A stretch of DNA of 64,000 nt from Eledone cirrhosa (taxonomy: Eukaryota). Positions 21,430 through 56,617 of the stretch are shown piece after piece. The DNA is taken from the NCBI GenBank assembly GCA_964016885.1, contig OZ024745.1, forward strand, positions 110,546,001 through 110,610,000, given 5' to 3'. The translations under genes and the position numbers were made by a program. How positions within the stretch are numbered: the stretch's first letter is position 1; every line of letters begins with the position of its first letter. The notes under the pieces were generated by a model. The model saw only the letters and a program-made list of their open reading frames with translations, ran no database searches and had not been told where the DNA came from.

Positions 21430-21920
21430 TTAAAACTTAACAAAAGGCTCCTCCCTATGTACAAAGGATGACTGCATGATGCCTGTGTGCAAAGTGTGAT
21501 GCTGCATGGTAGTGAAACATGGGCAGTGACCACAGAGGACATGTGTAGACTGGAGAGAAATGAAGTAGTTATGCTTTGTTGGATGTGCAATGTAAACATG
21601 AGAACTTGGATGAACTGAGGGAGAAGCTGGGTCTAAGAGGAATCTGAGGTGGTGTGCTGGAGAGAAGACTGCATTGGTACAGACATGTGATACACATGGA
21701 TTATGACCAATGAGTGAAAAATGCCAGAAAATACGAGTGGAAGGAAGTCACAGTAGAAGTAGACAAGAAAACCTGGGCAGAGGTGGTAAAAATGACCTCA
21801 AGTCACCGACACTCACAGAGATGATGAGAATGGATCGTAACATGTGGAAAGATGCCGTGCTAAGAAGGAGCAATCCAACTCATGCAAGCATGGAAAAGGG
21901 GACATAAAAACGATGATGAT
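21430..21920 (+). mobile_element. older RTE 3' fragment
   Basis: Diverged homologue of ~37010-37480 ([14 protein letters not shown]), ending catgcaagcatggaaaag...gatgatgat. Confidence 0.85.
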
Positions 21921-27277: not shown

Positions 27278-27281
<4 letters not shown>

Positions 27282-27574
27282 ATATACACGAACGGCAAAG
27301 CATAAACAAATTGAGAGATAGACTGAGCATAAGAGGAATCAAATGCTGTGTGCAGGAGAGGTGGTTGCGTTGGTATGGACATGTGATACGTATGAAGGAT
27401 GACAGCTGCATAAAAAGGTGCAGAGCACTAGAAGTTGATGGAAACCGCGGAGTGGGGAGACCCAAGAAGACCTGGGATGAGGTGATAAAAGCCGACCTTA
27501 CCCAATTACACCTCTCAAAGGCGATGACACACGACCGTGACCTCTGGTGTCACACAGTAATACAGAAGACCTGA
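27278..27574 (+). mobile_element. young RTE 3' ORF fragment
   Basis: Near-identical to ~37168-37455; starts in (TA)n; a more diverged RTE fragment lies just upstream at ~26940-27220. Confidence 0.95.
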
Positions 27575-32689: not shown

Positions 32690-34318
32690 ACATGTATGTA
32701 TGCATATAAATATATCTATTATACATATATATATACAATATATATATTATATGTATATATACATACATATATACATATATATATTATATACATACATATA
32801 TACATATATATATTATATACATACATATATACATACATATATACATATATTATATACATACATATATACTATATACATACATATATATATTATATACATA
32901 CATATATATATTATATACATACATATATACATATATATATACATATATTATATACATACATATATATATATTATACATACATATATATATTATATACATA
33001 CATATATATATATATATTATATACATACATATATATATATATATTATATACATACATATATATATATATTATATACATACATATATATATATAATATACA
33101 TACATATATATATATTATATACATACATATATATATATTATATACATACATATATATATATTATATACATACATATATACATATATATTATATACATACA
33201 TATATACATACATATATTAATATATATTACATACATATATATATTATATACATACATACATATATATATTATATACATACATACATATATATATACATAC
33301 ATATATATATTATATACATATATATATTATAGATATATATATTTTATACATATATGTATTATATACATATATATTATATACATATATATTATATACATAT
33401 ATATTATATACATATATATTATATACATATATATTATATACATATATATACATATATATACATATGTACATATATATACATATATATACATATATACATA
33501 TATATACATATATACATATATATTATATGCATATATATACATACATACACACATATATATTATATGCATATATGTACATACATACACACATATATATTAT
33601 ATACATATATATATATTATATACATATATACATATATATTATATACATACATACACACATATATTATATACATATATATATTATATACATATATACATAT
33701 ATATTATATACATACATACATACACACATATATTATATACATATATTATATACATATATACATATATATTATATACATATATATACATACATACATATAT
33801 TATATACATACATACATATATACATATATATTATATACATATATATATATTATATACATATATACATATATATTATATACATATATATATATTATATACA
33901 TACATATATACATATATATTATATACATACATACATATATACATATATATTATATACATATATATATATTATATACATATATATATATTATATACATATA
34001 CATATATTATATATATATATATTATATACATATATATTATATACATATTATATACATATATATTATATACATATATATTATATATATATATATATTATAT
34101 ACATATACATATATTATATACATATATTATATACATATATATATATTATATACATATATTATATACATATATATATATTATATACATATATTATATACAT
34201 ATATATATATTATAAACATATTATATACATATATATATATTATAAACATATATTATATACATACATATATACATATATATATTATATACATATATACATA
34301 TATATACATACATATATA

Positions 34319-34359
<41 letters not shown>

Positions 34360-34463
34360 ATATACATACATATATATACATATATACATATATATACATA
34401 CATATATATACATATATACATATATATACATACATATATACATATATATACATACATATATAC

Positions 34464-34502
<39 letters not shown>

Positions 34503-34755
34503 CATATATACATACATACATACATATATATATACATACATATATACATACATATATACATACATATATACATACATATATATATATATATACATACATA
34601 TATACATACATATATATATATACATATACATATATATACATACATATATACATACACATATATATATACATACATATATACATACATATATACATACACA
34701 TATATATATACATACATATATACATACATATATACATACATATATATACATATAT
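32690..34755. repeat. ~2 kb complex (TA/TACA/TATT) satellite-like tract
   Basis: Almost G-free on the + strand; it explains the Y/I/H/T-rich pseudo-ORFs. Confidence 0.95.
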
Positions 34756-35168
34756 GGTGGCTGCCAACTCGTTTTCGAGTACGGCCACTACTTCATATCC
34801 ATGTAGGAGAACCCCTACCGATGCGCTGAACGAGTGTGACTTTTTAGTCCAGCCAGCGACTTGAAAACTCTGGTACCAACACTACACTTGTGACAATTAC
34901 TGACACATAGTGCTGGGCCCATGGTACCATGTGACGACAAGTGCAGAGAGATCTCCAGATATAAAGCAATGCCTGTGCCGTGAAGCTTTTATAGTGAGCA
35001 AAGGCACTGCACAAAGCCAGTCCCACTCTCTTAACCAAGATGATATTTACCAAAAAGAAGAACAAGCCAACATCATTGGATACCATCAGGGTTGCAGGTG
35101 TTATATCAGAGTTTTCCTTCTCCTAGAATTCTGCCTTGACAAAGGCTAAGGGGTCATCTCTCCCGGGG
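34756..35168 (-). mobile_element. probable RTE 5' UTR fragment, inverted relative to the adjacent RTE body
   Basis: GC-richer block bounded by TA tracts; minus strand contains aaggcagaattctaggagaaggaaaactctg, a motif I recall from RTE-clade 5' UTRs. Confidence 0.45.
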
Positions 35169-35202
35169 ATATATATATATATATATATATACATATATAC
35201 AT

Positions 35203-37785
35203 ACAGGCCAACCTGGAGAAGAAAGATCTGGAAGCTGAAAGTCCCCTCAACCAGTAACAGATTTAAAGATATTTTACTCAACGCCTACGACAGTAAAGAA
35301 GAACAGATAGAGACATTTAACGTAGAAGAGAACTGGGAGTTCCTAAAAAATAACTTACTAGAGGCGACGGATGAGGTTTGTGGCTGGAGTAAGACCTCAA
35401 GCAGGAGGAGAGTGACTTGGTGGTGGAACAATAAGGTAGATGAAGCAGTCAAGGCCAAGAGACAGGCATGGAAAGAATGGAAGAACGGGGGGAGCAGGGT
35501 ACATTACATAGAGACCAAGAGGGAAGCTAGGCGACAAGTATACTTAGCTAGGAGGGAAGCAGAGGATAGAAAATTCAAGCATGTTTTACAACGTGAGGAC
35601 CAGAAACAGGAGGTATTCAAGATTGCGAGGCAGTGTGTCAGAGATAGTTGTGATGTCATTGGAGAGAAGTGTATCCGGAATGATAAAGGTGAGCTTGCCC
35701 TCACAAGTGCTGAGAAGAAAGATGCATGGAAGAGTCATTATGATAGATTACTAAATGAGGAGAATGCATGGGAAGAAGAGACCCTACCCCACGTAGACCC
35801 TATAGAGGGACCAGCAGTACAAGTCAGCGGCAGCGTAGTAAGTAAGGCAATCAGAGATATGAAGATAGGGAAGGCAACCGGTCCATCGGGTATAGCTGCC
35901 GAGATGCTGAAGGCATCTGGGTCTGTAGGTCACACTATAACCACACGTATCGTTAACCAGGTAATACTAGAGGGGGCCATACCAAAAGATTGGTGCAGTA
36001 GCATCATTGTCAACTGCTACAAAGGTAAAGGCGATGCACTAGATAGAGGAAACTATAGAGGTATAAAGTTGATGGACCAGGTCATGAAAGTAACAGAAAG
36101 AGTTATAGCACAGCTGATTAGGGACCGGGTGAATATAGACGAGATGCAATTTGGGTTTGTTCCAGGGAAAGGCACCACTGATGCGCTCTTCCTTGTGAGG
36201 CAATTACAGGAAAAGTACCTAGCTAAAAGTAAGCCACTCTACTTGGCATTTGTCGACCTTGAGAAAGCCTTTGACAGAGTTCCACGTGCAGTAATCTGGT
36301 GGGCTCTTAGAAAACTAGGAGTAGATGAATGGCTTGTGAAAGCGGTACAAGCCATGTATAGGGGAGCAGTCAGCAAAGTTAGGATTGGCAATGAGTATAG
36401 CGAGGAATTTAGCGTACAGGTTGGGGTCCACCAGGGCTCTGTTCTTAGCCCTCTCCTGTTCATCATAGTCCTGCAGGCAATAACGGAGGAGTTTAAGACC
36501 GGATGCCCATGGGAACTCCTGTATGCTGATGACCTCGCACTCATAGCTGAATCTATGGTAGAACTAGAGAATAAATTCCAAACCTGGAAGCAGGGACTAG
36601 AGAGAAAGGGCCTCAAAGTCAACATGACAAAGACTAAGGTCCTTATAAGTAGACGAGAAAACAGAACCCAGATCCCCTCAGGGAAATGGCCTTGCTCAGT
36701 ATGTAGGAAAGGTGTAGGTAGGAACTCCATTCTCTGCCCCAAATGCAAACAATGGGTACACAAGAGATGTAGCGGGATCTCAGGAAGCTTAATTAAGAAT
36801 GTAGGATTCACATGCAGCAGCTGTGCTGAAACAGCAAGCAAACAGCCACAGGAAACAAGTACCACCAATCTCTGGGAGGGCCCTGTAGAAACAGTAGACA
36901 GCTTCTGCTACCTAGGTGACCGAATTAGCAACGGAGGTGGGTGCTCAGAAAGTACAATAACTAGGGTAAGAACGGGATGGAAGAAGTTTAGGGAACTACT
37001 ACCACTGCTAGCTGCAAAAGGCTTCTCCCTCAGAATGAAAGGCAGACTGTATGATGCGTGTATCCGAACAGCGATGTTGCATGGTAGTGAGACCTGGGCG
37101 CTGAAGGTGGAAGACTTACGTAGATTAGAGAGAAACGAAGCCTGCATGCTCCGATGGATGTGTAACAGTAATATACGTGAACGACAAAGCATAAATGAAT
37201 TGAGAGAGAGACTGAGCATAAGAGGAATCAAATGCTGCGTGCAGGAGAGGCGGTTACGCTGGTATGGACATGTGATGCGTATGAAGGATGACAGCTGCAT
37301 AAAAAGGTGCAGAGCACTAGAAGTTGATGGAAACCGCGGAGTGGGGAGACCCAAGATGACTTGGGATGAGGTGATAAAAGCCGACCTTACCCAACTACAC
37401 CTCTCAAAGTCAATGACACACGACCGTGACTTCTGGCGTCACGCAGTAATACAGGGTACCCGACCTCCCATGGGTACATGCTGAAGCATATAAACAATAT
37501 GCCCCCCCCCCCCCACCGCAAGGTGGTCGTGGAGGTGCCACGGCAAAAAAGCACCCAGCCCACACTGTAAAGTGGACGTGTAGGCGCCACGAAAAAGCAC
37601 CCAGCACTCACTGTAAATGAGGTTGGTGTTAGGAAGGGCATCCAGCTGTAGAAATCAAGCCAGATCAGTTCCTGTATGAGCAAGGCATGGTCAGCCGACC
37701 AGACACTGCCCACAACAGGACAACCCGTCTAACCCATGCTAGCGTGGAAGAACGGACGTAAAACGGTGATGATGATGATGATGAT
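35203..37785 (+). mobile_element. young 5'-truncated RTE-clade LINE, copy 1
   Basis: Open frame with RT, ~280-nt 3' UTR with tandem ~47-nt repeats, and (GAT)6 tail; the APE endonuclease is missing. Confidence 0.97.
35205..37484 (+). CDS. RTE ORF (linker, reverse transcriptase, PHD-like finger, C-terminal domain), uninterrupted but lacking its true start
   Basis: Motifs [56 protein letters not shown] (36522-36533), [14 protein letters not shown] and RGVGRPK. Confidence 0.9.
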   Translation, partial: RPTWRRKIWKLKVPSTSNRFKDILLNAYDSKEEQIETFNVEENWEFLKNNLLEATDEVCGWSKTSSRRRVTWWWNNKVDEAVKAKRQAWKEWKNGGSRVHYIETKREARRQVYLARREAEDRKFKHVLQREDQKQEVFKIARQCVRDSCDVIGEKCIRNDKGELALTSAEKKDAWKSHYDRLLNEENAWEEETLPHVDPIEGPAVQVSGSVVSKAIRDMKIGKATGPSGIAAEMLKASGSVGHTITTRIVNQVILEGAIPKDWCSSIIVNCYKGKGDALDRGNYRGIKLMDQVMKVTERVIAQLIRDRVNIDEMQFGFVPGKGTTDALFLVRQLQEKYLAKSKPLYLAFVDLEKAFDRVPRAVIWWALRKLGVDEWLVKAVQAMYRGAVSKVRIGNEYSEEFSVQVGVHQGSVLSPLLFIIVLQAITEEFKTGCPWELLYADDLALIAESMVELENKFQTWKQGLERKGLKVNMTKTKVLISRRENRTQIPSGKWPCSVCRKGVGRNSILCPKCKQWVHKRCSGISGSLIKNVGFTCSSCAETASKQPQETSTTNLWEGPVETVDSFCYLGDRISNGGGCSESTITRVRTGWKKFRELLPLLAAKGFSLRMKGRLYDACIRTAMLHGSETWALKVEDLRRLERNEACMLRWMCNSNIRERQSINELRERLSIRGIKCCVQERRLRWYGHVMRMKDDSCIKRCRALEVDGNRGVGRPKMTWDEVIKADLTQLHLSKSMTHDRDFWRHAVIQGTRPPMGTC

Positions 37786-37787
37786 AT

Positions 37788-39633
37788 ATCATCATCATCA
37801 TCATCATCACCGTTTTACGTCCGTTCTTCCACGCTAGCATGGGTTAGACGGGTTGTCCTGTTGTGGGCAGTGTCTGGTCGGCTGACCATGCCTTGCTCAT
37901 ACAGGAACTGATCTGGCTTGATTTCTACAGCTGGATGCCCTTCCTAACACCAACCTCATTTACAGTGAGTGCTGGGTGCTTTTTCGTGGCGCCTACACGT
38001 CCACTTTACAGTGTGGGCTGGGTGCTTTTTTGCCGTGGCACCTCCACGACCACCTTGCGGTGGGGGGGGGGGGGCATATTGTTTATATGCTTCAGCATGT
38101 ACCCATGGGAGGTCGGGTACCCTGTATTACTGCGTGACGCCAGAAGTCACGGTCGTGTGTCATTGACTTTGAGAGGTGTAGTTGGGTAAGGTCGGCTTTT
38201 ATCACCTCATCCCAAGTCATCTTGGGTCTCCCCACTCCGCGGTTTCCATCAACTTCTAGTGCTCTGCACCTTTTTATGCAGCTGTCATCCTTCATACGCA
38301 TCACATGTCCATACCAGCGTAACCGCCTCTCCTGCACGCAGCATTTGATTCCTCTTATGCTCAGTCTCTCTCTCAATTCATTTATGCTTTGTCGTTCACG
38401 TATATTACTGTTACACATCCATCGGAGCATGCAGGCTTCGTTTCTCTCTAATCTACGTAAGTCTTCCACCTTCAGCGCCCAGGTCTCACTACCATGCAAC
38501 ATCGCTGTTCGGATACACGCATCATACAGTCTGCCTTTCATTCCGAGGGAGAAGCCTTTTGCAGCTAGCAGTGGTAGTAGTTCCCTAAACTTCTTCCATC
38601 CCGTTCTTACCCTAGTTATTGTACTTTCTGAGCACCCACCTCCGTTGCTAATTCGGTCACCTAGGTAGCAGAAGCTGTCTACTGTTTCTACAGGGCCCTC
38701 CCAGAGATTGGTGGTACTTGTTTCCTGTGGCTGTTTGCTTGCTGTTTCAGCACAGCTGCTGCATGTGAATCCTACATTCTTAATTAAGCTTCCTGAGATC
38801 CCGCTACATCTCTTGTGTACCCATTGTTTGCATTTGGGGCAAAGAATGGAGTTCCTACCTACACCTTTCCTACATACTGAGCAAGGCCATTTCCCTGAGG
38901 GGATCTGGGTTCTGTTTTCTCGTCTACTTATAAGGACCTTAGTCTTTGTCATGTTGACTTTGAGGCCCTTTCTCTCTAGTCCCTGCTTCCAGGTTTGGAA
39001 TTTATTCTCTAGTTCTACCATAGATTCAGCTATGAGTGCGAGGTCATCAGCATACAGGAGTTCCCATGGGCATCCGGTCTTAAACTCCTCCGTTATTGCC
39101 TGCAGGACTATGATGAACAGGAGAGGGCTAAGAACAGAGCCCTGGTGGACCCCAACCTGTACGCTAAATTCCTCGCTATACTCATTGCCAATCCTAACTT
39201 TGCTGACTGCTCCCCTATACATGGCTTGTACCGCTTTCACAAGCCATTCATCTACTCCTAGTTTTCTAAGAGCCCACCAGATTACTGCACGTGGAACTCT
39301 GTCAAAGGCTTTCTCAAGGTCGACAAATGCCAAGTAGAGTGGCTTACTTTTAGCTAGGTACTTTTCCTGTAATTGCCTCACAAGGAAGAGCGCATCAGTG
39401 GTGCCTTTCCCTGGAACAAACCCAAATTGCATCTCGTCTATATTCACCCGGTCCCTAATCAGCTGTGCTATAACTCTTTCTGTTACTTTCATGACCTGGT
39501 CCATCAACTTTATACCTCTATAGTTTCCTCTATCTAGTGCATCGCCTTTACCTTTGTAGCAGTTGACAATGATGCTACTGCACCAATCTTTTGGTATGGC
39601 CCCCTCTAGTATTACCTGGTTAACGATACGTGT
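37788..39633 (-). mobile_element. young 5'-truncated RTE LINE, copy 2 (inverted; open frame 39633-38092)
   Basis: Mirror image of 35943-37785 with (GAT)7 tail; I see two substitutions, one silent and one R-to-G. Confidence 0.97.
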
Positions 39634-39655
39634 ATATACATATATATATACATAC

Positions 39656-39686
<31 letters not shown>

Positions 39687-39701
39687 CATATATATATACA
39701 A

Positions 39702-39754
<53 letters not shown>

Positions 39755-39893
39755 CATATATATATACATATATATATATATATACATATATATATATTTA
39801 CATATATATATATTTACATATATATATATTTACATATATATATATTTACATATATATATATACATATATATACATATACATATATATATATAC

Positions 39894-39926
<33 letters not shown>

Positions 39927-40697
39927 CATATATATATACATACATATACATACATATATATACACATATATATACACATATATATATATACACATATATA
40001 TATACACATATATATATACATACATATATACATACATATATATACACATATATATACACATATATATACATACATATATATATACATACATATATATATA
40101 CATATACATACATATATATATACATATATATATACATATATATGCGCATATATATACACATACATATATATACACATACATATATAGACACATACATACA
40201 TACATATATATATATAAATACACATACATACATATATATATACATACATACATATATACATACACATACATATATATATATACATATATATATATACATA
40301 CACATATATATATATACATACATATATATATACATACACATACATATATATATACATACATATATATATACAAACATATATATATACATACATATATATA
40401 TACATACATATATATATACAAACATATATATATACATACATATATATATACATACATATATATATACATACATATATATATACATACATATATATATATA
40501 CATACATATATATATACATTCATATATATATACATACACATACATATACAGACACATACATAAACATACATATGTATATATACATACATATATATATACA
40601 TACATATACAGACACATACAAACATACATATATATATATATATATACATACACAGACACATACAAACATACATATATATATATATACATACACATAC

Positions 40698-40728
<31 letters not shown>

Positions 40729-40962
40729 CATATACATACATATATATACATACATACATATACATACAGATATATACATACATATACATACATACATACA
40801 TACACATACATACATATACATACATACATACATATATACATATTTATATACATACATATATACATACATACATATATACATACATACATACATATATACA
40901 TACATATATATGCATGTATATATATATATATTATATACATATATATATATATATAATATATA
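39634..40962. repeat. ~1.3 kb (TA/TACA)n tract
   Basis: Read directly; same strand polarity (CA on +) as 32690-34755. Confidence 0.95.
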
Positions 40963-42359
40963 TGTTATATTTTAAAATGTTCAATCAAAGTGTAAATATG
41001 AACAAATTTAGAGAGAAAATTAAAAATTTCACAAATATCAGTTCTATTATTGAAAAATAATTGCTCTGTTTGAAAACAAAAGGGAGATTTAGATTTTATC
41101 ACACTATTACTAAAGAGGAAGGTACACATTTGGAATCAAATATATTGATTTGATTTTAATAAGGTGTTGAGAAAACAAAGCTTTAAAGATTGGTAAAATA
41201 TATCTAATTTCATAAAATGGTCTTTTTTAACAGGATTTTTTTTTCAAATATAATGTTGAAGACAATTTAATTACTATGTTATATATGAAAAACATAATTA
41301 AAACTAAAGAAAACATCAATATATATATATTTATTATATCAACATTACATCTGTGTGTGTCTGCATGCTAATATATATATATATGTGTGTGTATAAATAT
41401 ATATATATATGCATGTGTGTGTGTGTGTATGTGTATGTGTGTCTGTGTGTGTATATGTGTGTGTATGTATATATATATAATATATATGGTATATATATAT
41501 ATATATGTTGTTGTTCTAAAAGGAATTTAAAATTGTCAGATCAAATCTAATATGTAAAAAATACATAGTATTGATATGTCTTTACTAACAAATCCATTAG
41601 AATGTATGGACAGGTAATGGAAGGTGTAACTGAACAAGTTGATGGTATGACAGTCTGCTATCTAAAGTGGCCATAGTTTGTATTCCATTAACTGCAATTT
41701 TCCCAGGTCTATGACCAAAATATCTAAATTTTGCTGGATCGGTGTTATATGTAAATTGTGTATCTCAGGCTACTTTTATTTTAGTTAGCATAAAGGAAGA
41801 CATGACTTTATGCAATTGGGTGTGCTCAATAAGCAAAAATGAATTAAGTTACAAAAAAGAAACTATGGTTGCAAAAGTGATGCAGTACGATCAGAGACAG
41901 ACTGACAAAGGACATTGTGTATAGCAGATGTGCATGAGGAATCAACAGTAAGATTACTCATAACATACTAGCGTGGAAAATGGACGTGGAAAATGGCATG
42001 GAAAATAGACGTAAAAGGATGATGATGATGATAGATCCTTACAATTGCTCAGAGGGCTCGCTAGTTAGCTTCCCTAGATAATTTGGTTACTTTGGTTACA
42101 TATGCTAACAGTGGAGATGTTCCAAAAGCATAGGAGCCAGAGCTAGAAGGGGATAGAAGGAGGTTTGAGCACTATAACCACTACTGACAACCAAGACGTT
42201 CTGTTACCAAGAAATGGCAGAATTTTTATGCTCGAGTATAAAATGCAATACTACACAGCGGTGAAACGGACATTGAATGCAGAAGATGTGGCAAGCTGGT
42301 ACAACAAATTGGGGAAAATACAGTTTGACTGTGTCAGGAAAGAGCACAACAGATGCACT

Positions 42360-43530
42360 ATTGTTACCGAGACAATTACTAGAAAAGTTCCTAGCCAAGT
42401 GTAAGCCACTACATCTAGCTTTTGTTGAGATGGCCATTGATGGGCTCATATGATCTGTCATTTGGTGACCCTTAAGGAAACTGGTAGTAGATGAGTGGTT
42501 TGTGAAATAGACGCAAGTCATGTACAGAGGTGGTGTTAGTAAAGTGAGAGCAGAGTTTAGTGAGGAATTCGATATATAGGAGGGGTGTTTATTAAGGTGA
42601 AGTTCTCCAGACCATAACTGAAGGGTCTAAGACTGACTGACTGGATGCTGTGGTTCTTATAGTTATATCTGTGGAAGAGCTTCAGAAGAAATTTCTGTTG
42701 TGGAAACTGAACATAGAACTAAAAGGGCTCAGAATAAATCCAATGAAGACAAAAGTTTTAGTAAGTAGGGAACAACAACATGACTGATTTCATAAGGAAA
42801 GTGACCATGCTTAGTAGGTAGAAGTAGGTAGGAACTCGATATGATGTACACAATGAAAGGTATGGGTACACAAGATGTGTAGTGGGATTCTAGGCTGGTT
42901 TACAAAAAAGATACATTTTACATATGGCAGCTGTACAGCAGTAAATAGTGAGAGCACTAATGAAATAAATCTTTTCTAATCCCAGAAAGGTAACATAGAA
43001 GTTAATAGTTCTGGTTACAAAAGAGACTTAATTAGCATTAGAGGTGTTTGTTGCTCTGAAAGCATAGTAACTAGAATAAGAACAGGTGAATGGTAAATTC
43101 TATAGTGCTTGTATGAGAAATGAGATGTTGCATGGCAATGAGACATGAGCAGTAGATGCAGTGGCTGGAGAGAAATGAAGTAAGTATGGTCCATTGGATG
43201 TGAAATTCTGGTATGCTTGAATTGAGAGGAAAACTGGCTATAAGTGGAATCAGATTTAGTGTAAAAGAGAGAATATTGTGCTGGTATCGATATATGATGG
43301 TTTTGGATGATGATCACTGGGTGAAAAAGTGCCAGTAGATGCCAGTGGAAGGAAGCTGCAGTAGGGAAAGACTGAAGAACACCTGAGTTAAAATGATTAG
43401 AGCTAATCTTAAAACATTGAACCTCATAGAGGAGATAACGAAAGAATGCAACAAATGGAGGGGAGCTGTGCTGGAGTGAATCTGTCGAAGCCATGCAAAC
43501 ATAGAAAAGCAAACATAAAAGATGATGATG
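42360..43530 (+). mobile_element. old, heavily decayed RTE copy (RT to 3' tail)
   Basis: QLLEKFLAKCKPLHLAFVE, KGLRINPMKTKVLVS and WVHKMCSGI remnants; ends ...aaagatgatgatga. Confidence 0.85.
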
Positions 43531-43561
43531 AATTTATGTGCATGGCTATGTTTGTAATGTA

Positions 43562-43700
43562 GAGGCATGTGGCCTAGTGGTAAGGGTGTTGGACTTGTGA
43601 TCATAATGTCGTGGGCTGCATTGAGTGTTGTGTTCTTGAGCAAAACACTTCATTTCGCATTGCTCTAGTATACTCTGCCGTAAATGAATACCAGCAATAG
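43562..43700 (+). mobile_element. tRNA-derived SINE with Meta-like core
   Basis: tggcctagtggtaagggtgttgg...ttcttgagcaaaacacttcatttc; related to 46457-46700. Confidence 0.7.
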
Positions 43701-44044
43701 TTGGGGGTTTAACTCTCCTGAGTTAATCAAAGTTAGTACCAGTCAACTATTAATTTTGATTTACTTGACTTTCCTCTCCCCCAAATTGCTGGCCTTGTGC
43801 CTAAATAAGAATCTTGAAAAAATATGTACTGGGTCAATATGATTAAAAATCTCTTCAAGGCAGTGCCTCAGCACAACAAAGCTGCAGTCTAATGACTAAA
43901 AGAATAAAATATATACATATACACAGATATACTTTTACACACACACACACACACACATACACACATACACACATACATATATATATATATATATAACATT
44001 CGTGAATTGTTACAGATATAATTTACATGTATACAGATTTCTGC

Positions 44045-44273
44045 TTAACGCTCTAGCATTTAAACCGGCCATATCCGGCCAGAATTCTTTCACCTCTTTC
44101 TGTTCAAACTGACCATAATTGGCTGCTCATACTTATGTTAAGATATTGTTCTCAAAATAAATAATATCAAAATCTCATAGATTCGATATTATGTGAGATA
44201 ATTATGTGAGATGAAGCCTTTACCATGAAAATACAATAGTAAATATAGAATAATATAAATGCTAAAGGGTTAA
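44045..44273. mobile_element. piggyBac-like MITE, family 2
   Basis: TTAA-cgctctagcattta ... taaatgctaaaggg-TTAA. Confidence 0.8.
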
Positions 44274-46456
44274 AAAAGTAATATCATTGAACATTTTTAA
44301 CACCTATTTATAAAGTACAACACTGCATAAGATTTCCTAGTTTTTCAAATATACCAAAATATAATTAACTGTGTACTTAATCTAAGTATTTTAAAAACAA
44401 TTTAATTGATATTTTTCTTACTGGTGCGTGCTTCTTGACCTGTATTCTTTTTCATAATTTGAGAATAAATTAAGATATAAATTGTGTAGTTTTGTAGTTT
44501 GAGATGACCTCTTTAGTTCTACTTCAATATAATTTACTTTATAAATCAGAAATCTAAGTGAAAATTAATAAAAGCCAATATTTATTATTTAATTATTGTT
44601 TGAAATGTTATAAAAATAATGCGTCTCTTAGAACTAACTTAAAGAAAACAAATAGAAACAATACAATTTTCCAAGGACAGTTATTCATACAAATGAAAAA
44701 TCTTCAAGTTCTTATGAATAAAATGTTTTAATTTGATTGTATTAACTTGAAAGACATTAATTTATCTAATTTCATAATGATAAATCATAAACTGAAAAAT
44801 GGAACAACAAAATAAAAGGAGAATAAAGACTTACTTTAAACAGACTAATAGCTTTCTGAAACTAAAAGGTGTTTAGAATTCATATGAAAGGAAAAACTGA
44901 TCACTTAAGAGTAGATTCTGCATGCTAGCAAATACGAAATATGAAATCCTACATAGAGTTAACTACAAGATAATGTGACATAAAGCAAAAAAAATAAGAT
45001 TGCATATAACATTTTTGTAAAAGTAACAAAGATTTGACAGATATCAACTATACTTAGTTCATCATATAAAAAGTAGAGAAATGAAATAAATCTCATTAAT
45101 AACGAAGCAAGCCTTGATATCAATAGGGTAAGCATTAAGACTGAGCTTGGGCAAGTTTTGAACATGAGGGAAATTCTTTCCAAATAAAAGAAATGAATAG
45201 ACAAAATATATATCAAATAATACAGGCAAAAAAGTTTGAAAAGAATTTCCATAAAGGAAATAAATAAAACACTGTGCATCAACAGATAAGATTATAAAAA
45301 AAAAGTATGATTGCTTTGCTATTCTAGCAGATAAAAAAAAATATATGGATCTGCTTGTTTCTTAAAAATCATCTCTCATGAGTGGGAGAAACAAAAGAAA
45401 AACAAAATTTTATAAATAAACTAGACTATAACAACTAAGAACAACAGTTTGCATTTGGATAGAGGTAGTCTTTCTCCCTTGTTCAAGCATCGAGGTCAAT
45501 TGCCAAAGTTAATGTTGATTGTATTTTCAAAAGGCTTTCTTAGTAGATTGATTTTCGTCCAATGTACATCAAAACCGTCAGCATTTTTTTTCCATTTTTT
45601 GTTTATACACACAACCATGAACACAAGGAGAAAACGAGGTTTAAAAAGATTAAAGAAAATACTTTCCACTTTCTTTTCAGATATTACCCTAAGAGAAGGC
45701 GAACTAAAAGAAAAAAAATGGCAAAACACGTAAAAGTATAAACATTAGCCAAAAGTAACAAAAAAAAACAAAACTTTCCTTAGTGATGACATTTCTTGTC
45801 AATTCTTTTCATACTTGTATCCATCTTGTCATACCTCACTTCTCCAGTCTCACATAGAAAATTGTTACATCAGGGACAGAACAAAGAATGCCTTCAATTT
45901 TTCCTCTCCGACGACATTTTATGGTATTAATGATGTTTTATCTACCTCCAATTGGAGTTAAAAGCTTTCTTTTGGTTATATTTTTTGAAATTTCTTTATT
46001 TGTGTGTGTGTTTCAAATAAGATGTTAATAATGGTTTCTAATAATAAAAACATTAAATAAAATAAGAAAATTGTGAAATAAATAACCAAGTTTATATAAT
46101 CGCATGTTCAATATCAAAACACCAAATATTTTAACCAAGTTAAATACATATTTAAATGTGAGCTATTTAATTTTAAAGCCTAAGATTATAATACAGTGAT
46201 TAAAGATTAAGGTATACATTGTTTTACGTTGAAAGTTTCTGTATTTTAGGGAGAGTTGGAAAGGAAGTATTGTGACAGTCATCATTTCTCAACTGATGAG
46301 AATTAACTGCAACTTATGGTGTTAATTCCCCAGAATTGAAACCATTGTTCTATAGTGTTTAAAACAAGTAAAATTCAACAATGCAAAAATTGTAAAACCA
46401 AATAAACATTAGAATGTGTAATTAATATTTTAATCACTACTTCTCCAAATTTGTGA

Positions 46457-46700
46457 AGGCGAATGGCCTTGAGGTAAGGGTGTTGGACTTATGATCATGA
46501 TGTCGTGGGTTTGATTACTGGTCTAGGTTGAATGTGTTCTTGAGCAAAACACTTCATTTCACATTGCTCCAGTATACTCAGCTGAAAATGAGTACCTGTC
46601 CAGAGAGAAGTCTTGTACTCTCAGTTGCTTCACACCATGAAACCGGTATAAGCACTGGCCTAAAAAGCCTTCTGGCTTAGGACTTTAGACTTTTTATTTT
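46457..46700 (+). mobile_element. tRNA-derived SINE with Meta-like core and a non-RTE tail
   Basis: Core as in family A, but 3' part tcagttgcttcacaccatgaaaccggtataagcactggcc...gactttagacttt. Confidence 0.7.
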
Positions 46701-46759
46701 AGACTTCTACAAATTGAGAGATCATGGCTCTGTTACTAAGAGCATGTGATCAAAATGTC

Positions 46760-46960
46760 TAAAAAAAGAATTGCTGGACAGGTTTTATGTGCAAAACCAA
46801 CTGGCAGGAGACATAGAGTAGACCCTGAGCAAGGTGGTTGGATAACATCCATGAGCTCTGCTAATCTTGCTTGGAGATCCAGCTGAATCAATTAGAAACA
46901 GTTGCTTCTGACAGGACATGCTCCTATGACCCTCCCAGGAATAAGTGGGCAAAGAAGATG
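46760..46960 (+). mobile_element. RTE-like (Rex3-like) 3' fragment
   Basis: Reverse-complement similarity to 2055-2240. Confidence 0.75.
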
Positions 46961-48875
46961 TATAATTAAAATTTTAAGTGAAAGGTTTTTAAACTGTAAA
47001 GGTTTAAGTTTTTATTACCTAGATTGGGATTATTACAAATTGTCACAAAATTAAATGTACTAATTATTAGATAGCATTGCCTTTTTAGTTCCCCTAACAA
47101 TGCTAGCCTTTTCTAAACTGTCCTAAGTCTTGTTTATGGGCAACAATGTTTTGCTGTCTCAAAAAGAATCTCTCAATTTGGCAAATTCATCTACATTAGC
47201 ATTAGGGGAGATTAGTGTTAGGGCAGGCTATTTTTGTAGCATGAATTGTAGATAAATTCACCTAGAATCCAAAGTCTCATTAAATGGTGCTACTAGATTA
47301 GATCCTACTTTTTTTCAATTTCTTTATATCATCATTTAATTTTCAAGCGGTTTAGCTCTATATTATAAATCTTATTTAATTTCTTTTATTTTAGCGATAA
47401 TCAACATTTAAAATCCTAGAGCTACCAAATGGCTTTACATATTGCCATTATACCCTCAATCTATAGATTCTCCCTATTTTTCATGTTAATAAACCATGAA
47501 AGGAATACTCTCAGTAAAAAAAGGTTATATTATCAAAGAGAAATTTTAATGGGGGAGAAAAAAAACAACCTTTTTGTAAAATACCCAAATAAATTATATG
47601 CTTGGTAGATATTCAACCTTTTGCACGGTTATTGTTTCATAATGTCAATAAAATTTCTTGTAAAGAAGTGAAATAACCAATTTACTTAGTCTGATGCACA
47701 AACTGAACCTAAATAATAACATGTTAACTTTTAACGAAATATGTTCCATACCAAACATTGCTTCACAAATGAGGCAGAAGCCAGAAGATGTGTGAAATTC
47801 TAATGTTTTCAGACGTGAACATTTCCATTGAAATGAATGTAACATTAACAAAAGGTAGATATTTTAAATATGAATTTATCTATGTAAAAGAAAAGCTAAA
47901 AAAAATTATACAAAAAGTTTTATTGTATTAAATTTTAATATGTATATAATAAAACAACATAGATATTCAAAGTAATTTATTTATTCATTTAAGTCTAAAT
48001 GTTATGAACTGCTGGAATATTTTGCTAAAAAATGTAGACAAGTTTTGTTACCTAGGTGACCTAAACAGTATTAGGGTGAAACCTTAACACTCTTTAGTAT
48101 GACATCAGAAGAATAAACATGATTGGAAGAAATTGAGGGAATTTGTCAGATAACAAAGAGATTCTCTTTCCATTAAATGTATAATTTCTTCATCAGAAAT
48201 ATGAGGTTGTCTGTCTGTGAACCATGGATAGTGAAGAAGAATCATTACAAGGTAAAACTACAACAGATAGATATAAACAGGTTGAATATACAAAGGAAAC
48301 TTGAGAGGAGGGCTGATAAGATAGCAACATATAAAAAGTATTGATGTTTAGGTAAGAGGTGACAGTGTTGATCTATGTATGTAATATATAAATAATGAAT
48401 ATAGCAGGCGATCTGAAAAAGTGTTCCTCAATGGTTATGTTTTTTTTTATATTTAATTATTTATTCATTTTTATTTCATTAGTCTAAGGTAGTGGAAAGT
48501 ACTTGTGATTGTATTTCTGCCACCATAGAAATAATTCATACTATAAATATGAAAAGAGTAACAAAGAACAATATTAGTATTCATATAAACTTATTAACTC
48601 AATTCTCTCTCTCACTAATAAACAACTTACCAAAATACAAGCTAATATGGTAGCACGGCCTGCTAGAAATAGCAAACAAATTCCCTTGAAGCTACACCTT
48701 ATTTTTAAAAAAAACGACATTTTGGATAATATGGTCCCAGATACATTGCCACCTGAAAATCACTGGAATACTTGGATCATAAGTCTGCTTAATTAGAGCT
48801 GATCTGGAGCTAGACAATAACAACTTAGAAAAATAAGAAATATTTTTGCTTTATAAGAACTAAAGACTATGTAAC

Positions 48876-49515
48876 TAACCTTTTTGATAACTACCTATCC
48901 AAAACCACCTTGGGTCCTATAAAATAAAAAAGCATTTTAAAGGATTTCTATGTAAATTTAAATATTCCAACATAATTTTGTGTAAGAACCATATGTTATG
49001 TTACAAATACCATCTTAATAATAATTATTTTTACTGTTGTCACAAGGCTAGCAATTTAAAGAGAAGGGGAAAGTCAGTTAAATTGACCCTAGGGTGTTAC
49101 TGGTACTTTATTTTATCGACCATGTAAGGATGAAAAACAAAGCTGGGATCAGCAGGATTTGAACTCAGAATGTAAAGAGCCATGACTATGCCAATCCACT
49201 GCCCTTTTGAATCGTTTCTACTTTAGGCACAAGGCCAGCAATTTGAAGGGGTGCGGGGAAAGTCGATTAAATTGACCCCAGTATATTACTGGTTCTTTAT
49301 CTTAACCCCATAAGGATGAAAGGCAAAGTTATCCTTGGAAGGTTTTGAACTCAGAATATAAATGGCCGTACTATGCTGCAAAGCATGGTGTCTGATGCCC
49401 AACTGATACTGCTAATCCACCGCCCTCCTTCTTAATAATAAAAAATGATAATTAATAATAGTATTTCCATCCAAATTCTTCATTAATCAATTCAAATAGT
49501 GTATTTTATTAGCAA
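48876..49515. mobile_element. family 1 MITE interrupted by two tandem minus-strand family B SINEs (49024-49429)
   Basis: MITE halves flank the SINE pair; tcttaataata is repeated at 49013-49023 and 49430-49440. Confidence 0.75.
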
Positions 49516-49550
49516 TATCATGACGAAAGGTTTAAATACATTTAGTGTGT

Positions 49551-49949
49551 GAAAGCACATGGCTTAGTGGTTAGAGCATTGGGCTTGCAATCGAAAAGTT
49601 GTGAGTTTAATTCTTGGACCGGGTGATGTGTTGTTTCCTTGAGCAAGACACTTTATTTCACACTACTCCAGTTTACTCAGCTGTAGAAATGAGATGATAG
49701 GATTGGGGTCCCTATCATTCCACTGCAAAGAGGTCATGGAGGTGCCATGGCAAAAAAGCATCCAGCACTCACTGTAAATGAGGTTGGTGTTAGGAAGGGC
49801 ATCCAGCTGTAGGAATCAAGCCAGAATCAGTTCCCGCATGAGCAAGACAGCGTCAGCCGACTGGACACTGCCCACAACAGGACAACCCGTCTAACCCATG
49901 CTAGCGTGGAAGAACGGACATAAAACGGTGATGATGATGATGATGATGA
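49551..49949 (+). mobile_element. full-length SINE family A, (GAT)n tail variant matching the RTE terminus
   Basis: Head and core as at 24843; 49720-49949 is colinear with the RTE 3' UTR including ggacaacccgtctaacccatgctagcgtggaagaacggac. Confidence 0.92.
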
Positions 49950-52900
49950 CATATGTCTATACTAAAAACTTCGATGGATAAATTCATAAAGCTATTCTTC
50001 TTAGCCCACATATGCTTGGGGAAGGCATGGGAGCAGAGTCCTCAAGCACACCTTTTACCAAGTCTTGTCAGGATCAAAAGTCTTCAACTGATCCAGCCGG
50101 ACTACCAAGCCAAACTTGCTTGTCTCTGGGTCTCTTGGCAGCAATTCTTTCCTTAGACAGGTTCATCATACAGGAGCTGTGATCCGCCAATTCCAAGAAT
50201 TAGTCGCTCTACTCAGAGCAACTTCTTAATTTCTGAATTATGCATTCTATGAAAAATCTTTCAGGACTCCAATTCAGCCACTTGTATACATATTCGTGAC
50301 CATAGGTAAAGATTGGCATGAATACTGAATTGATGATGATTATGACTTATTTGATTCCAGATAAGTTCATAAGGTTAAATTAATAAAACAAAAATGATCA
50401 AATTGTCAGCCCAGCCAATAAGTGAGATTGATACAGTTCATACTTAGTTTAATGATATTTTGTTTATATAACAAATAGTGATATTAAAGAAATTAACATG
50501 GAAGAATGAACATATATTAACATGGAAAAATGATGAGATATTCATTATAAATATTCTCACATTCTTTTACAAGTCCAAATGTCATCATACTCCTACAATC
50601 AGGAGTCCATCCCATTTAATAGTAAATGAAGGCAACTTATAGTCCCATAAAGAATACCCATTTTCTTCCTAATACATTATTTCTACTGATAAATTAGAGT
50701 TTGGATAATATGAATTGGAGTGTCAAGAATACCCCTGGACACACCAAATAAATATTTGACATTTACCATACAATTAATAGACAACAAATATAACATAGAT
50801 ATTTCTAATTGCATACAAATAATAAACTTCCTAACAGAAGCCCTCCAGATACCACTCAAAAAAAGCAGATAGACATCATTACTAACAGGGAATTTGGCAA
50901 TATTAAGGAAGGCGATGTTGGAACTCTTTTAATACATCATGCTTATGGGAATGTAATGTATGACAAAGATGGTTATTACTATGATGAGTCAAAATATGAC
51001 TATTTACTAAATGGTTTTAGGGCTTGGACCAATAATTTAGAAGACATTTTTTTTAGCTATATTACTACATCATTACTGAATCATAGTAATTTTAAATATA
51101 TAAAATACCACTGAAACAGTATACAAAATTATTATTATTATTATTATTTTTTGCCTTTATAATGACATTATATAATTTGAATATTCCATGGACATCTTTT
51201 TGGATTATTCACGAATGTATTAAAAGATGTTTTGGTACAAACAGTAAAAATGGATATTATAATGGTTTCAATTAATGTATTTCCAAACATTTTCAAGCCA
51301 ATTTTCTTCTCTGTATATTTTAAAGGAAAATATGCCATGTGTCATAACTCCCAGAAATATTGCCTGAGAATGAATTAGAATTCAATATGATTAATTGTGA
51401 ACAAAAATTTGTAGTCAAGTGTAAACATATTCAGAATTCAGAAAATCTTAAAATATTTTTTACTTCACATGATGTCGGTTAGAGGTATTACCTCCTGAAA
51501 GGTCATATAATTGCTGCTGCTGCTGTTGGTCACCTCAGGCAAATATCTTAGGTCATTATTACAGTTTTGCTACTTCTCTATCGTGCGTTGCCATCATGTA
51601 AAATTACTAACTTTTTCAACTCTTTTTCAACTCTTAAAAATCAATCCTTAATTGATCATCCTGCTGACATCTACACATACAATATAGAACAGTTCAGAAT
51701 TTCTTTTGGGTTTAGTGGGAAATAACCTGACTAAATATAATTACTGATTTTGGCAGAAGACCAGCAAAATTCGATTAAAACGACCCCAGCGCATTACTGG
51801 TACTTTATCTTATTGATCCCGCAAAGCTAACCATGGCAGGACATGAAATCAGAACATAAAGGGCCGTTACTCTATGCCACGAAACAGTGTTTGATGTTAC
51901 CAATCCATGACCCATTAACCTGACTAAATATAATAATAATTAAATGGCTTTTAAAAAAGAAATTCAGAAATTCTTTTTATTTTTTTTTGTTTACACTGTT
52001 AGTAAAAATAAAAATTAATAAAATTAAGTTTATATTTATGAAAATACAAAATACTCAAAATCAGGATTTAGTAAAAAGATGCATTTATTTATGCATACTT
52101 CAGGGTTTCATGTAATATGGTAAACTGAAAAAACATTAATTAACCAAGATTACCTATGCAATTAGTAAACAAAACTCCCTCTATGAATGCTTCAAATGTA
52201 AAAACCACAGACAAAAGAGAACTCCAATTAAATCACATTTCACCCACAGCCATATCCTTTTATTTATGTGCCATATATTTAGATATCAATGTATGTCATT
52301 TTTTACTTTATACATATAACATCATAAATTTGTAAGCGCTGGCCATCTCACAGTCCCGGCAAGCCTTTTCTTTTGGTGGCCAGTGCATGAGCCCCATTTG
52401 GCTCATAATAGTGAGAGATGGGAGACAACGGGAGAAACAGAGACAGTGGGAGTTTGGTTCCTTTGTCATCAGACCTGGTGTATATGTTTTGTATTTTTTT
52501 ATCGCATCACTATACACAGTATGAAATATACAAAAAGCCTACACAACAGCAGCAATTGTAAGGGGTATGAGATACATTTCCAGTCTGTTATGACTTATCT
52601 GTTCTACAAATAAGTTTAAAGTGAATAAATAAGCACCAACTTAATAAGTTTATAAACATATTTAGTGTGTGTAAACATGTGTAGTTAGTATATGTATGTG
52701 TATTTGCAGATATTGTACATTTACCAACTTTTTTAAATTCATACTTTAAAAGTAAAACAATTTCTAATGATTTTGAAAAATAATTATCTAAGCAAATTTA
52801 GAAGTTAGGGCATCCGTTGTTGTTCATTCACAATTCAATTCTGAAAATATTTTTGGTATCTGGTAGCATCTTATGCTGTTCTTTTTATTTTCTAGGACAA

Positions 52901-55487
52901 CATTGCTTATTCCATTATACTATACTTGACTATATGATATGTCTTAATGCAGGGATCCCCAAATTCTTTAGGCAATGGACCCTTGCAGCAAATTTTTGAC
53001 CCCCCTCATTGACAACAGACTTGTACAAAAATAAATAACTAAACAAATTGGTAAACAATATAAAATAAATAGAAAATAAAGATTAATTAATTATAAATCA
53101 GAAACACGTATAAGCAAGTTGTATCTACAGCATCATTTTATGTATTTTTGTTTCTCATACAATTGTCAAGTTTTAGTTCAAAAGTTCAGTCAACCCCCAA
53201 GGTATCCCATCAACCCCTACAGATCATTATCAACTACTTTGAGAACCATTTCACATATCAACCCTTTTGATACCAAACCACTTAAAACAGTCCCAGTTCT
53301 ATGATAACAAAACTTTATATTAAAATGTTTATATTTAAAAACCTATCATAATTATATGGAAGAGCCTTTGTTAAGTTAATTTCCAACACTAGCTTAATAA
53401 TATGATAGAAACTGTTTCTTGTTTATTGGACTATAGCTGTAATACAAAGAAATACCCAGTCTACTCACATATTGTGTCTGAATCTTCCTGTGAATTATGT
53501 TAAGCGTACATGTGTCTGTGGAATGCTTAGCCACTTGTATGTTAATTTCATTAACTGGCTGTTCTATAGAGTAAACAACTAGAACACTCATCATCGAAAC
53601 CGATGGAGATCCATTCCATCAGAAATTATAAATAATATTTTGTAGTAAAAACAAAATATTTATAAAAATATCAATCATTTTAAAATAATCAAACATATAT
53701 TAACATTGAACAATAAATATTAAGATGACTTCTCTTTTTAGAGAGAGGGGAAAACGTTCACGATTTGGGGGATTTTGCAAATTGTTTTCTTTCTTTTGAT
53801 TGTTAAAATTGTCATTTTTATCATTTTTCATTAATGACAGAAAAATCTTAAATAAGCAAAAATATTTTAGATATATTTCTTTCAAGAGGTCAGTTATTCC
53901 TGCAAGAGATACGATGATAATTACCTCAAAAAATAATATAGAGAGTACAAATTATTTTTACTTTAAATCTTTTACACAGTAAGCCCAAAAACTTTAAAAT
54001 AAAACAATATACAAATGATTTAGAAATAGTTTTTAAATCAAAAGAAAAATTTAATAAATAAATGATTTTACTATTTGATCTTTAAGAGATGTATTATCGA
54101 TTTCCTAAGAACCTTTAATTGTGTTCATATATTCTCTACATTGTAAAATAACAATATATATCACAAATGAATTTTCATAATTGTGATTTTATTTTTTATC
54201 TTATGTTGAACTGGCTAAAGATAATCACTGATCAAGTTATGGAATATTGATCCTATGAAAAGGCATCCTCATCGTTAGAAATCTGGTGCTACTAAATACC
54301 AGTTTTTATTGTTATCGGAAGTACTCTACTGCATTCTGTCATTTCATTTTCTACCAGGTAACTGTTTTTGTCATCATACAGAACATTAATCTTCTACAAA
54401 ATATACAGCTAATATTACATTTCGAAAAAGTGTGTAACCTATATCTTTTGTCTTATAAAACATCTTATGAAATATATGTGCTAAAACATCTGAAGTTGAC
54501 AAATGTACATCTAATATGATAGATTTGACAACACAAGAAAACAATCTATTGCACAGACTTCCCTTGTAATAGTTAATAGTCTGCAGACACAGGTCACTTA
54601 TGATATAATGATGACTAAAACATTTGCCATGTGTCAAGTCAAGGTTTTCTGGTATTTCAACAGTAGAATAAAACATGTTTGAATGCACAAAGAAAATAAA
54701 TAGACAGTTGAAGGAAATATGAGATTTGAAATGTAATCTCTGTAAATGCTAACTGATGTACAGTTATGTATATTAACAGTTTAAGATCTATAACACAAGC
54801 TTCCTACTGAATTCAAGATATAAGGCTAATTGTAACATTATCTATAACATAGAAACCCTTTAGAAATATATAACTTTTTTTGTATACTTAAGAATGTCTT
54901 TTTCCTTTTTTATAATGTATAGAATCAGTGATTTATGTTTCTATTTAATAAATGACACCCATATTACGATTATATACGTCAAAATAATTGACAAACATTT
55001 TAAAAAGTGGTGTAGATAATTCAATAGATGTTTTCTATGCAATAATTAGAATTCTAAAAAAATTAAGTGAGAACACAGAAAAGCTGAAATTGAATCTGCT
55101 GTGAAGATTGTCAATAAGATAAAGGCAAGGTGATATTTGACTAACAACGATATTTTTATTTTCTACCTTGCTGTTTTCAATGTACTGATAAATAAAAACA
55201 TTAGTAACTATGATGATTTTAGGTCTACCTCTTCTCTGCTAACCAAATCTGAGTTAGACATTGTGCTTCCATGATCAGCTGATTAATCCTAGTCATTGGC
55301 ATCTAAATGGGATTTTAACTCAGAATGCAAATGGCCAGAATAGGTAACACAAACTATGCCTTTTTTAATATCTATTTAATATATTTACTTAAAAATAATA
55401 AGTATTTTCAAATAAATTCATCACATAATACCATATATTTAATATATTTCAATTATCATAGCAATATTGAATAAAGCAATTCATTTA

Positions 55488-55720
55488 ACTCTTTTTTTTG
55501 TTACCATATTTTTAATGAAAGACACTGCCTATGATTTTCAAATAATGTTGAAAATAATCAAAACTAACCTTCTTATTATTAATTTGGAATTTGAAACTAT
55601 TTAACAAATATTCTTGTATAAAATGTTGATGGAAGATCTTTAGATAAACATTTAAAAGCAAACAGCTTTGTATTATAGAGCCAAGAGCAGTTTCAAGCGA
55701 TATGGTGTCAAAAGGGTTAA
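55488..55720 (-). mobile_element. piggyBac-like MITE, family 1
   Basis: ttaactcttttttttgttaccatattt ... ggtgtcaaaagggttaa. Confidence 0.65.
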
Positions 55721-56547: not shown

Positions 56548-56611
<64 letters not shown>

Positions 56612-56617
56612 ATACAC

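Follow-up and report, generated by a model that had tools for sequence, protein, structure and literature searches.

In an account of closely spaced inverted Alu pairs and of CLIQUEs in the human genome, short-spacer inverted pairs are described as prone to form hairpins; in the same account, a spacer of at most 24 bp goes with a strong bias of Alu pairs towards direct orientation, with an inverted:direct ratio of 0.076 (PMC3215922). For RTE LINEs with microsatellite 3' ends, it has been proposed that 1 to 2 nt of the tail pair with the target at priming, with short target duplications, and the target duplication has been described as preceded, some 10 nt upstream, by a stretch of T (PMC6007223).

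Here we describe a near-perfect palindrome of about 3.7 kb in a 64,000-nucleotide stretch of the Eledone cirrhosa assembly (contig OZ024745.1, positions 110,546,001 to 110,610,000; "the window"). Our best reading is that the palindrome is real in the assembly, rare, and mechanistically ordinary.

Anatomy of the palindrome and its LINE family

Sequence comparison confirmed that the palindrome consists of two very young, 5'-truncated copies of one abundant endonuclease-RT-PHD LINE (Table 1). Their tail-to-tail arrangement is confirmed as anatomy of the assembly, and it is known here from the assembly sequence alone. The arms, 35943-37785 and 37791-39633, match without gaps over 1843 nt each (99.9% identity) and have exactly two mismatches: C at 36734 versus T at the mirror position, and A at 37032 versus G. 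The original prediction, made from the letters of this stretch, had described the mirrored arms, the (GAT)6-AT-(ATC)7 joint, tails differing by one unit, and substitutions near 36734 and 37032. All of these were borne out, with the right arm proper beginning at 37791. It had also noted that the two 5' truncation points differ: the right copy does end at the mirror of 35943, but the start of the left copy lies at 35205 rather than 35203.

Table 1. Features of the palindrome and its flanks (positions within the window)
Feature	Positions	Strand	Remarks
Long (TA)n/(CA) microsatellite	32704..34755	.	Adjoins tail of element U
Element U	34756..35170	-	Separate short repeat family; 5'-truncated, ~415 of ~600 nt; head-to-head with left LINE
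Candidate 17-bp target-site duplication of left copy	35183..35199	+	Weak
Left LINE copy	35205..37785	+	Truncated at 5' end, with loss of the endonuclease; open frame up to 37484; RT ~36033-36647; PHD finger ~36693-36824; then 3' UTR; (GAT)6 tail 37768-37785
AT spacer, 2 bp	37786..37787	.	Likely remnant of TA target
Right LINE copy	37788..39633	-	5' truncation point at mirror of 35943; open frame; (GAT)7 tail 37788-37808
Long (TA)n/(CA) microsatellite right of pair	39634..40963	.	Polarity as in left tracts

The tracts that flank the pair share one polarity and are not mirrored, as predicted: their C:G counts are 213:7, 2:0, and 178:10. The first unique stretch to the right, 40960-41400, is single-copy in the assembly, so the mirror stops short of the flanks. 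The window's sole run of N is at 4905-5104. The right copy splits the partner of the candidate duplication into 37784-37787 and 39634-39646. An equally good match is found at 11-16% of random positions in the right tract, so this duplication, from which the order of the insertions is read, lacks significance; this counts against a sequential origin of the pair.

We considered whether element U might be the twin-primed 5' end of the LINE. This was ruled out: U is a separate short family, with an exact 35-mer at 50 places and 10 retrieved copies that are 95-98% alike. A search of the assembly for an empty allele found only that the right flank is single-copy and that three copies of U on small contigs are other loci. 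We also looked for a host gene: among 78 ORFs of at least 90 aa, none of the 16 chosen as non-repeat had a match in Pfam, and small exons could escape this search.

LINEs of the RTE clade have one long ORF with an APE endonuclease and RT and no separate ORF1. In the family studied here, copy L072 has a 1040-aa ORF with PF03372, PF00078, and PF00628, and in near-full-length copy L234 the ORF is the only sense-strand frame of at least 120 aa. Both the single ORF with endonuclease and RT and the microsatellite-like 3' end are found in this family, which we take to be RTE from its architecture. The label is consistent with that architecture, and the homologues returned for the protein were unnamed or uncharacterized.

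The family is large and young. Its tail 17-mer occurs 18,005 times and the exact tail 36-mer 10,720 times, and in 1,806 copies the element extends 1.8 kb inward from its tail. Identities of 99.2-99.9% are common between unrelated copies, and among 210 copy pairs 12% show at most 2.5 substitutions per 1790 nt. Truncation at the 5' end is general in the family. All 29 copies examined have (GAT)3-10 tails, and in 20 of these a TA tract follows the tail directly (such tracts make up 4-9% of a 200-kb sample). Target duplications of 8 bp are clear in copies L125 and L152; most flanks are low-complexity.

Lineages of the two arms

The left copy is identical over 2569/2569 nt to L234 and L235, and its two-site haplotype occurs 188 times. 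The right arm is one substitution away from both L152 and L074. It carries the sister-lineage allele at the mirror of 36734, a site that segregates 11:11 in sampled copies, plus a rare A>G at the mirror of 37032. These matches support the view that the arms derive from two sister source lineages and hence, presumably, from separate RNA templates, which argues against a single-molecule fold-back. This agrees with the original prediction of two young LINE copies rather than a fold-back.

The rare G is present in 5 copies. We rejected it as a lineage marker: of the other four carriers, only L183 is at least 98.5% alike, and it lies on another background. Editing of the template RNA by ADAR, considered as an excess of A>G, is unsupported (singletons: 10 A>G versus 3 T>C; p=0.39 once base composition is allowed for). 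Both arms also have a C13 homopolymer, which is found in 3 of 35 other copies and at 4 of 30 loci with the left haplotype.

Perfect palindromes are a known read artifact, and a chimeric or fold-back read could have joined two copies that are not neighbors. However, a fold-back should yield a single haplotype and a mirrored flank, whereas here there are two lineages, the tails differ, and the flanks are not mirrored, the right one being single-copy. A chimera would need both breaks to fall exactly at tail ends, and 22 other same-family pairs in the genome have a junction of the same form. We therefore consider an assembly or library artifact improbable.

Nascent DNA might also have turned back at its GATAT end, which is self-complementary, and used 1.84 kb of the left copy as template before rejoining the TA tract. 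The tiny spacer, the near identity of the arms, and the common C13 tract fit such a replicative fold-back. However, one of the two arm differences is the exact sister-lineage allele, and a random change hits one of the 17 segregating arm alleles about 0.3% of the time (17 / (3 x 1843)). Because the left copy shows no change relative to its lineage, a fold-back would need later gene conversion of the right arm. This origin is very unlikely.

Tail-to-tail junctions across the genome

We counted pairs in tail-to-tail orientation at plus-strand tails. An (ATC)4 run faces 175 of 8,976 plus-strand tails. The partners are mostly from older families: the same family was found in 8-9 of 66 sampled partners, and the same-family share is at most 4.6%, versus 7% expected. 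Mixed-family junctions are estimated at 350. Thus, tail-to-tail junctions are common and mostly involve older families, as targeting of shared TA microsatellites predicts. They exceed a uniform expectation about 20-fold (range 14-40); TA targeting alone yields 5- to 12-fold, and the remainder is unexplained. In this genome, tail-to-tail neighbors are ordinary, and only the length and perfection of the present pair are unusual.

Set against chance, as the original prediction had envisaged, tail-to-tail pairs gave no excess of same-family or age-matched partners. Among the 23 same-family pairs, one joins two long, young copies, where 0.43-0.70 would be expected by chance. In a small test, same-family partners were not in excess at spacers of 2 or less (3/14 versus 7/53 otherwise; Fisher p=0.42), nor were age-matched pairs in another (4 both-young pairs among 16, versus 3.5 expected). 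Therefore, the near-simultaneity that had been proposed for the two insertions is not needed. Insertion at the very tail of an earlier element, as the prediction's aiming model would have it, does happen: L125 and L152 are 99.6% young copies that abut the tails of far more diverged elements. Strong aiming is unsupported because spacer lengths range between -2 and 31 and the peak at -2 is small. Imperfect long pairs persist in the genome, at 3328 nt (95.0% identity, spacer 33), 2414 nt (88.5%, spacer 11), and 822 nt (99.1%, spacer 24).

These data bear on whether the two insertions were coupled. The unsealed 3' junction of the first (plus-strand 3' end ...GATAT) could have primed a second RNA in one germ cell, so that both copies entered in one episode within a single target duplication. 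The arms come from the youngest lineages, being 0 and 1 substitutions away from copies elsewhere, they have the C13 tract in common, the spacer is 2 bp, and the pair lies within one candidate 17-bp duplication; moreover, PMC11702581 describes cases in which a single L1 insertion drew on two RNA templates. However, the two small tests above found no excess of same-family partners at spacers of 2 or less or of age-matched pairs, young elements are also found joined to old ones with zero spacer, and the arms match different lineages. We regard coupling as possible but unlikely. It is similarly doubtful that, more generally, a LINE primes an inverted second copy from its own unsealed junction and so makes a spacerless palindrome of several kilobases at one go, with TA-targeting, (GAT)n-tailed elements thereby seeding hundreds of tail-to-tail hairpin substrates in this genome.

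Origin of the pair and comparison with known systems

One of two mechanisms offered in the original prediction was a single staggered cut in TA, with both strands priming at nearly the same time. The signs of two RNA templates and the self-complementarity of TA both suit this model. However, under target-primed reverse transcription each cDNA should start with its tail at a genomic 3' end, grow into the break, and meet the other at the 5' ends. The model fails because the tails would point outward; tail-AT-tail would need a 2-bp target freed from both flanks by extra nicks. We deduce this geometry from the reaction, and it agrees with what PMC11702581 says of twin priming and opposite-end ligation. 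Simultaneous priming is thus very improbable. A twin-priming inversion, in which one RNA gives a tail at the outer end and an internal inverted segment free of overlap, was ruled out as well: the tails meet centrally, the arms overlap over 1843 nt, and there are two lineages.

We think it probable that a single TA microsatellite received the two copies in succession, each through ordinary target-primed reverse transcription. The left copy would have arrived first, with a duplication of about 17 bp of TA/CA target. A second nick would then have fallen on the opposite strand, 2 bp past the left copy's tail, where a 3' AT could pair with the (GAU)n end of the RNA and prime an inverted copy, truncated at 1.84 kb. 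Because (TA)n is self-complementary, either orientation of insertion is equally available. The pair is predicted to be recent, probably polymorphic, fragile, and without selected function.

Counting against sequential insertion are the rarity of the full coincidence, the C13 tract common to both arms, and the unexplained part of the tail-to-tail excess. The full coincidence is expected about 0.005-0.04 times per genome (roughly 1-in-30 to 1-in-200), which is the product of 0.43-0.70 long-young pairs, the fraction with a spacer of 2 or less (2-4 of 23 pairs), and 0.12-0.3 for near identity, where 0.3 is an assumed upper bound.

If reads confirm it, the palindrome would be an inverted repeat of 1.84 kb, very recent and with essentially no spacer, that arose naturally in an animal germ line; work on long spacerless inverted repeats normally relies on engineered constructs or on Alu pairs, which are short. 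The palindrome reveals neither a new enzyme nor a new function. The 22 other same-family pairs, graded in arm length, identity, and spacer, and the estimated mixed-family junctions form a series from which the rate of palindrome loss could be measured, and which could also serve to ask whether palindromes feed dsRNA pathways. A read-through transcript of the present pair might, as the original prediction proposed, form dsRNA open to ADAR editing or small-RNA production.

As with Alu pairs, retroelements here pile into targets beside earlier copies, and tail-to-tail is defined alike; unlike in the account of Alu pairs, the target is self-complementary (TA)n, which would remove the orientation bias known for Alu, tail-to-tail neighbors are frequent (the only orientation counted here), and the arms reach 1.84 kb at 99.9% (PMC3215922). 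The microsatellite-like tail and a proposed pairing of 1 to 2 nt between tail and target are shared with the RTE LINEs described in PMC6007223, from which this family differs in its (GAT)n tail, its TA-tract target, and a PHD finger after the RT. Twin-primed and two-template L1 insertions likewise bring inverted reverse-transcribed segments from two RNAs to one site, but opposite-end priming leaves the L1 tails outside; the one tail-to-tail case described there is an L1/PTMA chimera at the foldback junction of a rearranged chromosome, not copies between colinear flanks (PMC11702581). The active RTE LINEs of Octopus are likewise single-ORF endonuclease-RT elements with recent activity; as described, the O. 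vulgaris element is set apart by a finger of the C2H2 type and a microsatellite 3' UTR, whereas the Eledone element has a PHD finger and a 3' UTR of about 290 nt (PMC9115989, PMC13282606).

Structure of the palindrome and its LINE family

Two 5'-truncated copies of a young LINE family (family A) lie tail to tail in the 3.0-Gb assembly of Eledone cirrhosa (the window is G000:C5:110546001-110610000). When we remeasured the arms, the junction, the mismatches, and the flank polarity, the original prediction's description of a palindrome was correct, save for a 2-nt offset. The arms (35943-37785 and 37791-39633) mirror each other over 1843 nt without gaps, with two mismatches (36734, C/T, and 37032, A/G) that leave perfect blocks of 791, 297, and 753 nt, and they meet at (GAT)6-AT-(ATC)7. 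The tracts flanking the pair have the same polarity on both sides, and a unique stretch to the right (40960-41400) has one copy in the assembly. In the assembly the palindrome is real, and it probably exists in the genome too.

Longer copies of family A reach ~3.9 kb and contain a single 1040-aa open reading frame with endonuclease, reverse transcriptase (RT), and PHD domains. The architecture and the microsatellite tail fit the RTE clade, and family A is a putative RTE family. RT-PHD relatives are widespread: named ones, from Hydractinia, Branchiostoma, and Mercenaria, are 51-60% identical, and a single match at 78% bears a bacterial label. Exact matches in the assembly number 10,720 for a tail 36-mer, 18,005 for a tail 17-mer, and 1,806 for a 40-mer lying 1.8 kb upstream of the tail. 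The genome-wide average is one match to the 36-mer per 280 kb, but the first 100 matches fall within 9.6 Mb (G000:C1:1-9,600,000), a roughly threefold enrichment; young copies are strongly clustered by region.

Features of the window, with notes on sequence content
Feature	Position	Strand	Notes
Left LINE copy	start 35205	+	RT (PF00078) and PHD finger (PF00628); frame open
Right LINE copy	end 39633	-	Frame open
U, a short repeat family	34756-35170 (other copies at loci L046-L055)		~600 nt, minus strand; tail runs into TA/CA repeats
Broken DNA transposon, presumably pogo/Tigger-like	5680-7057		HTH_Tnp_Tc5 match in 5680-6240; next frame without a match
Older LINE fragments (same or related families)	17851-18229, 27278-27565, 21441-21707, 42337-43332, 49721-49947		62-94% identity
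Second tail-to-tail pair, mixed-family	15849-16292	+ / -	Short + element ending ...GAAAATGAAATGAT, short AT spacer, - fragment of the family A 3' end at 93%

Some other features of these repeats were apparent. Two of the five older LINE fragments directly follow TA tracts. Several U copies are truncated at almost the same GGGG position, and their 5' junctions carry short tandem duplications. In two family A loci (L074 and L083), element sequence has been re-copied in short tandem stretches, at 5' junctions or internally, which suggests that the template slipped during reverse transcription. Also, sequencing runs labelled as nine other organisms (X4-X13) contain at least half the words of 34756-39640; one of them (X4), compared with 41000-60900 only, matched in 68 short pieces, and among the matches listed, all are on high-copy repeats. 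This sharing may reflect close relatives, trace DNA, or horizontal transfer.

Templates and order of insertion

Identity to the left arm is 99.2-99.9% for most long copies at the first 30 tail loci and 92-98% for a few. When the 21 long copies with at least 98.5% identity are compared in all 210 pairings, the median difference is 8 substitutions per 1790 nt, and no more than 2.5 substitutions separate 12% of the pairs. Thus, the 99.9% identity of the arms is at the upper end of the family's range and would not need a shared origin.

At 36734, sampled copies are evenly split (11 C, 11 T). The left haplotype (C at 36734, T at 37196) is present 188 times in the assembly; 5 of the 30 such loci that we fetched have no substitution relative to the left arm across the shared region, and two loci (L234 and L235) are identical to the left copy across 2569 nt. 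The right arm has the T allele at the mirror of 36734, and two copies (L152 and L074) are one substitution away from it; its second difference, at the mirror of 37032, is found in five copies genome-wide. Because a fold-back copies one haplotype, and a random change has a chance of only ~0.3% of hitting one of the 17 segregating alleles, these alleles make it much more likely that the pair came from two RNA templates. A C13 tract common to both arms counts against two templates, as it is present in just 3 of 35 other copies, but its presence in 4 of the 30 left-haplotype loci softens this objection. Between linked polymorphic sites of family A (36161, 36734, and 37196), each of the four possible allele combinations is present, which suggests that active lineages undergo template switching or gene conversion, or that mutations recur in them.

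As to the order of insertion, removing the right copy gave back a match of 17 bp with the 5' flank of the left copy (11-16% probability by chance), while treating the left copy as last left the right tail without a duplication, so left-first is mildly favored. The left copy would have inserted into a TA tract, with a 17-bp target duplication; a nick 2 bp beyond its tail would then expose a 3' AT, which could pair with the (GAU)n of the second RNA. Pairing of 1-2 nt between tail and target has been proposed for RTE elements (PMC6007223). The original prediction had also proposed that both strands of one cut were primed at once. This fails on geometry: cDNAs primed at either 3' end of a single cut would start with their tails outermost, against the flanks, and would join by their heads. 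The geometric argument is our deduction and is in line with PMC11702581.

Frequency of tail-to-tail junctions

Of 29 family A tails, 20 run into a TA tract. In twenty 10-kb samples taken across the six largest contigs, such tracts make up 4.1% of the sequence when only pure runs are counted and 9.4% under a loose mask. The original prediction proposed counting tail-to-tail pairs against random expectation, and there is an excess: of 8,976 plus-strand tails, 175 meet an (ATC)4 run inside the permitted gap, versus ~8 expected with uniform placement. These counts cover the tail-to-tail orientation. TA targeting explains 5-12-fold of this ~20-fold excess.

We examined the partners at 66 distinct sites, drawn from the first 100 matches listed (C1 and part of C2). 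Just 8-9 of the sites have same-family partners; the other partners are mostly older relatives with ~72-80% similarity or a short element whose tail is related, and some were unrecognized. Spacers range from -2 to 31, with 13 at 2 or less (8 of these at -2), 12 at 3-8, 20 at 9-14, 14 at 15-20, and 7 longer, although the gap limit trims long spacers. At two loci (L125 and L152), 99.6% young copies adjoin the tails of much more diverged elements, with 8-bp duplications, so sequential insertion without a spacer does occur.

Exact patterns, which miss pairs whose tail 17-mer has changed, identified 8 same-family pairs with gaps of 4-34 and 15 with gaps of 35-65. The original prediction of near-simultaneous insertion was not borne out by these pairs. 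The same-family share of plus-strand junctions is at most 4.6%, versus 7% (4.6-13%) predicted by the proportion of (GAT)4 runs that belong to the family. In 16 pairs, neither copy is shorter than 60 nt; both copies were young in 4 of these, versus 3.5 expected. Alternatively, the first insertion might prime the second copy from its 3' junction while this is still unsealed, which would give the tail-AT-tail arrangement; however, these tests, which are small, lack a signature of coupling, and we consider such coupled insertion unlikely.

Long elements that are at least 99% alike account for 8 of the 46 in the 23 same-family pairs. With independent pairing, 0.43-0.70 long-young pairs would be expected, and one was seen (the palindrome). 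Behind it come an 822-nt pair (99.1%, with a spacer of 24), a 556-nt pair (98.9%, with a spacer of 16), and a 3328-nt pair (95.0%, with a spacer of 33). The 3328-nt and 822-nt pairs are on contigs of just 89 and 49 kb (L231 on G000:C822 and L232 on G000:C1784); long inverted pairs may hinder assembly. Once a spacer this short (2-4 of 23) and such close identity are factored in, we expect ~0.005-0.04 such loci per genome. The palindrome is rare, and the window was chosen for being striking. Overall, the palindrome lies at the far extreme of a by-product that is common when an active LINE targets microsatellites.

Consequences and comparison with known systems

Neither copy has its own 5' end, so read-through would require an outside promoter. 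In squid, editing of repeats is widespread (PMC9068888). In the literature listings searched, largely outside subscription journals, we found no description of RTE pairs lying tail to tail within TA tracts; in PMC10191854 and 10.1101/2024.08.27.596794, "tail-to-tail" names rearrangement classes only. Inverted Alu pairs are comparable: those with short spacers are described as hairpin-prone and depleted (PMC3215922), and by analogy, we predict that the palindrome is recent and fragile.
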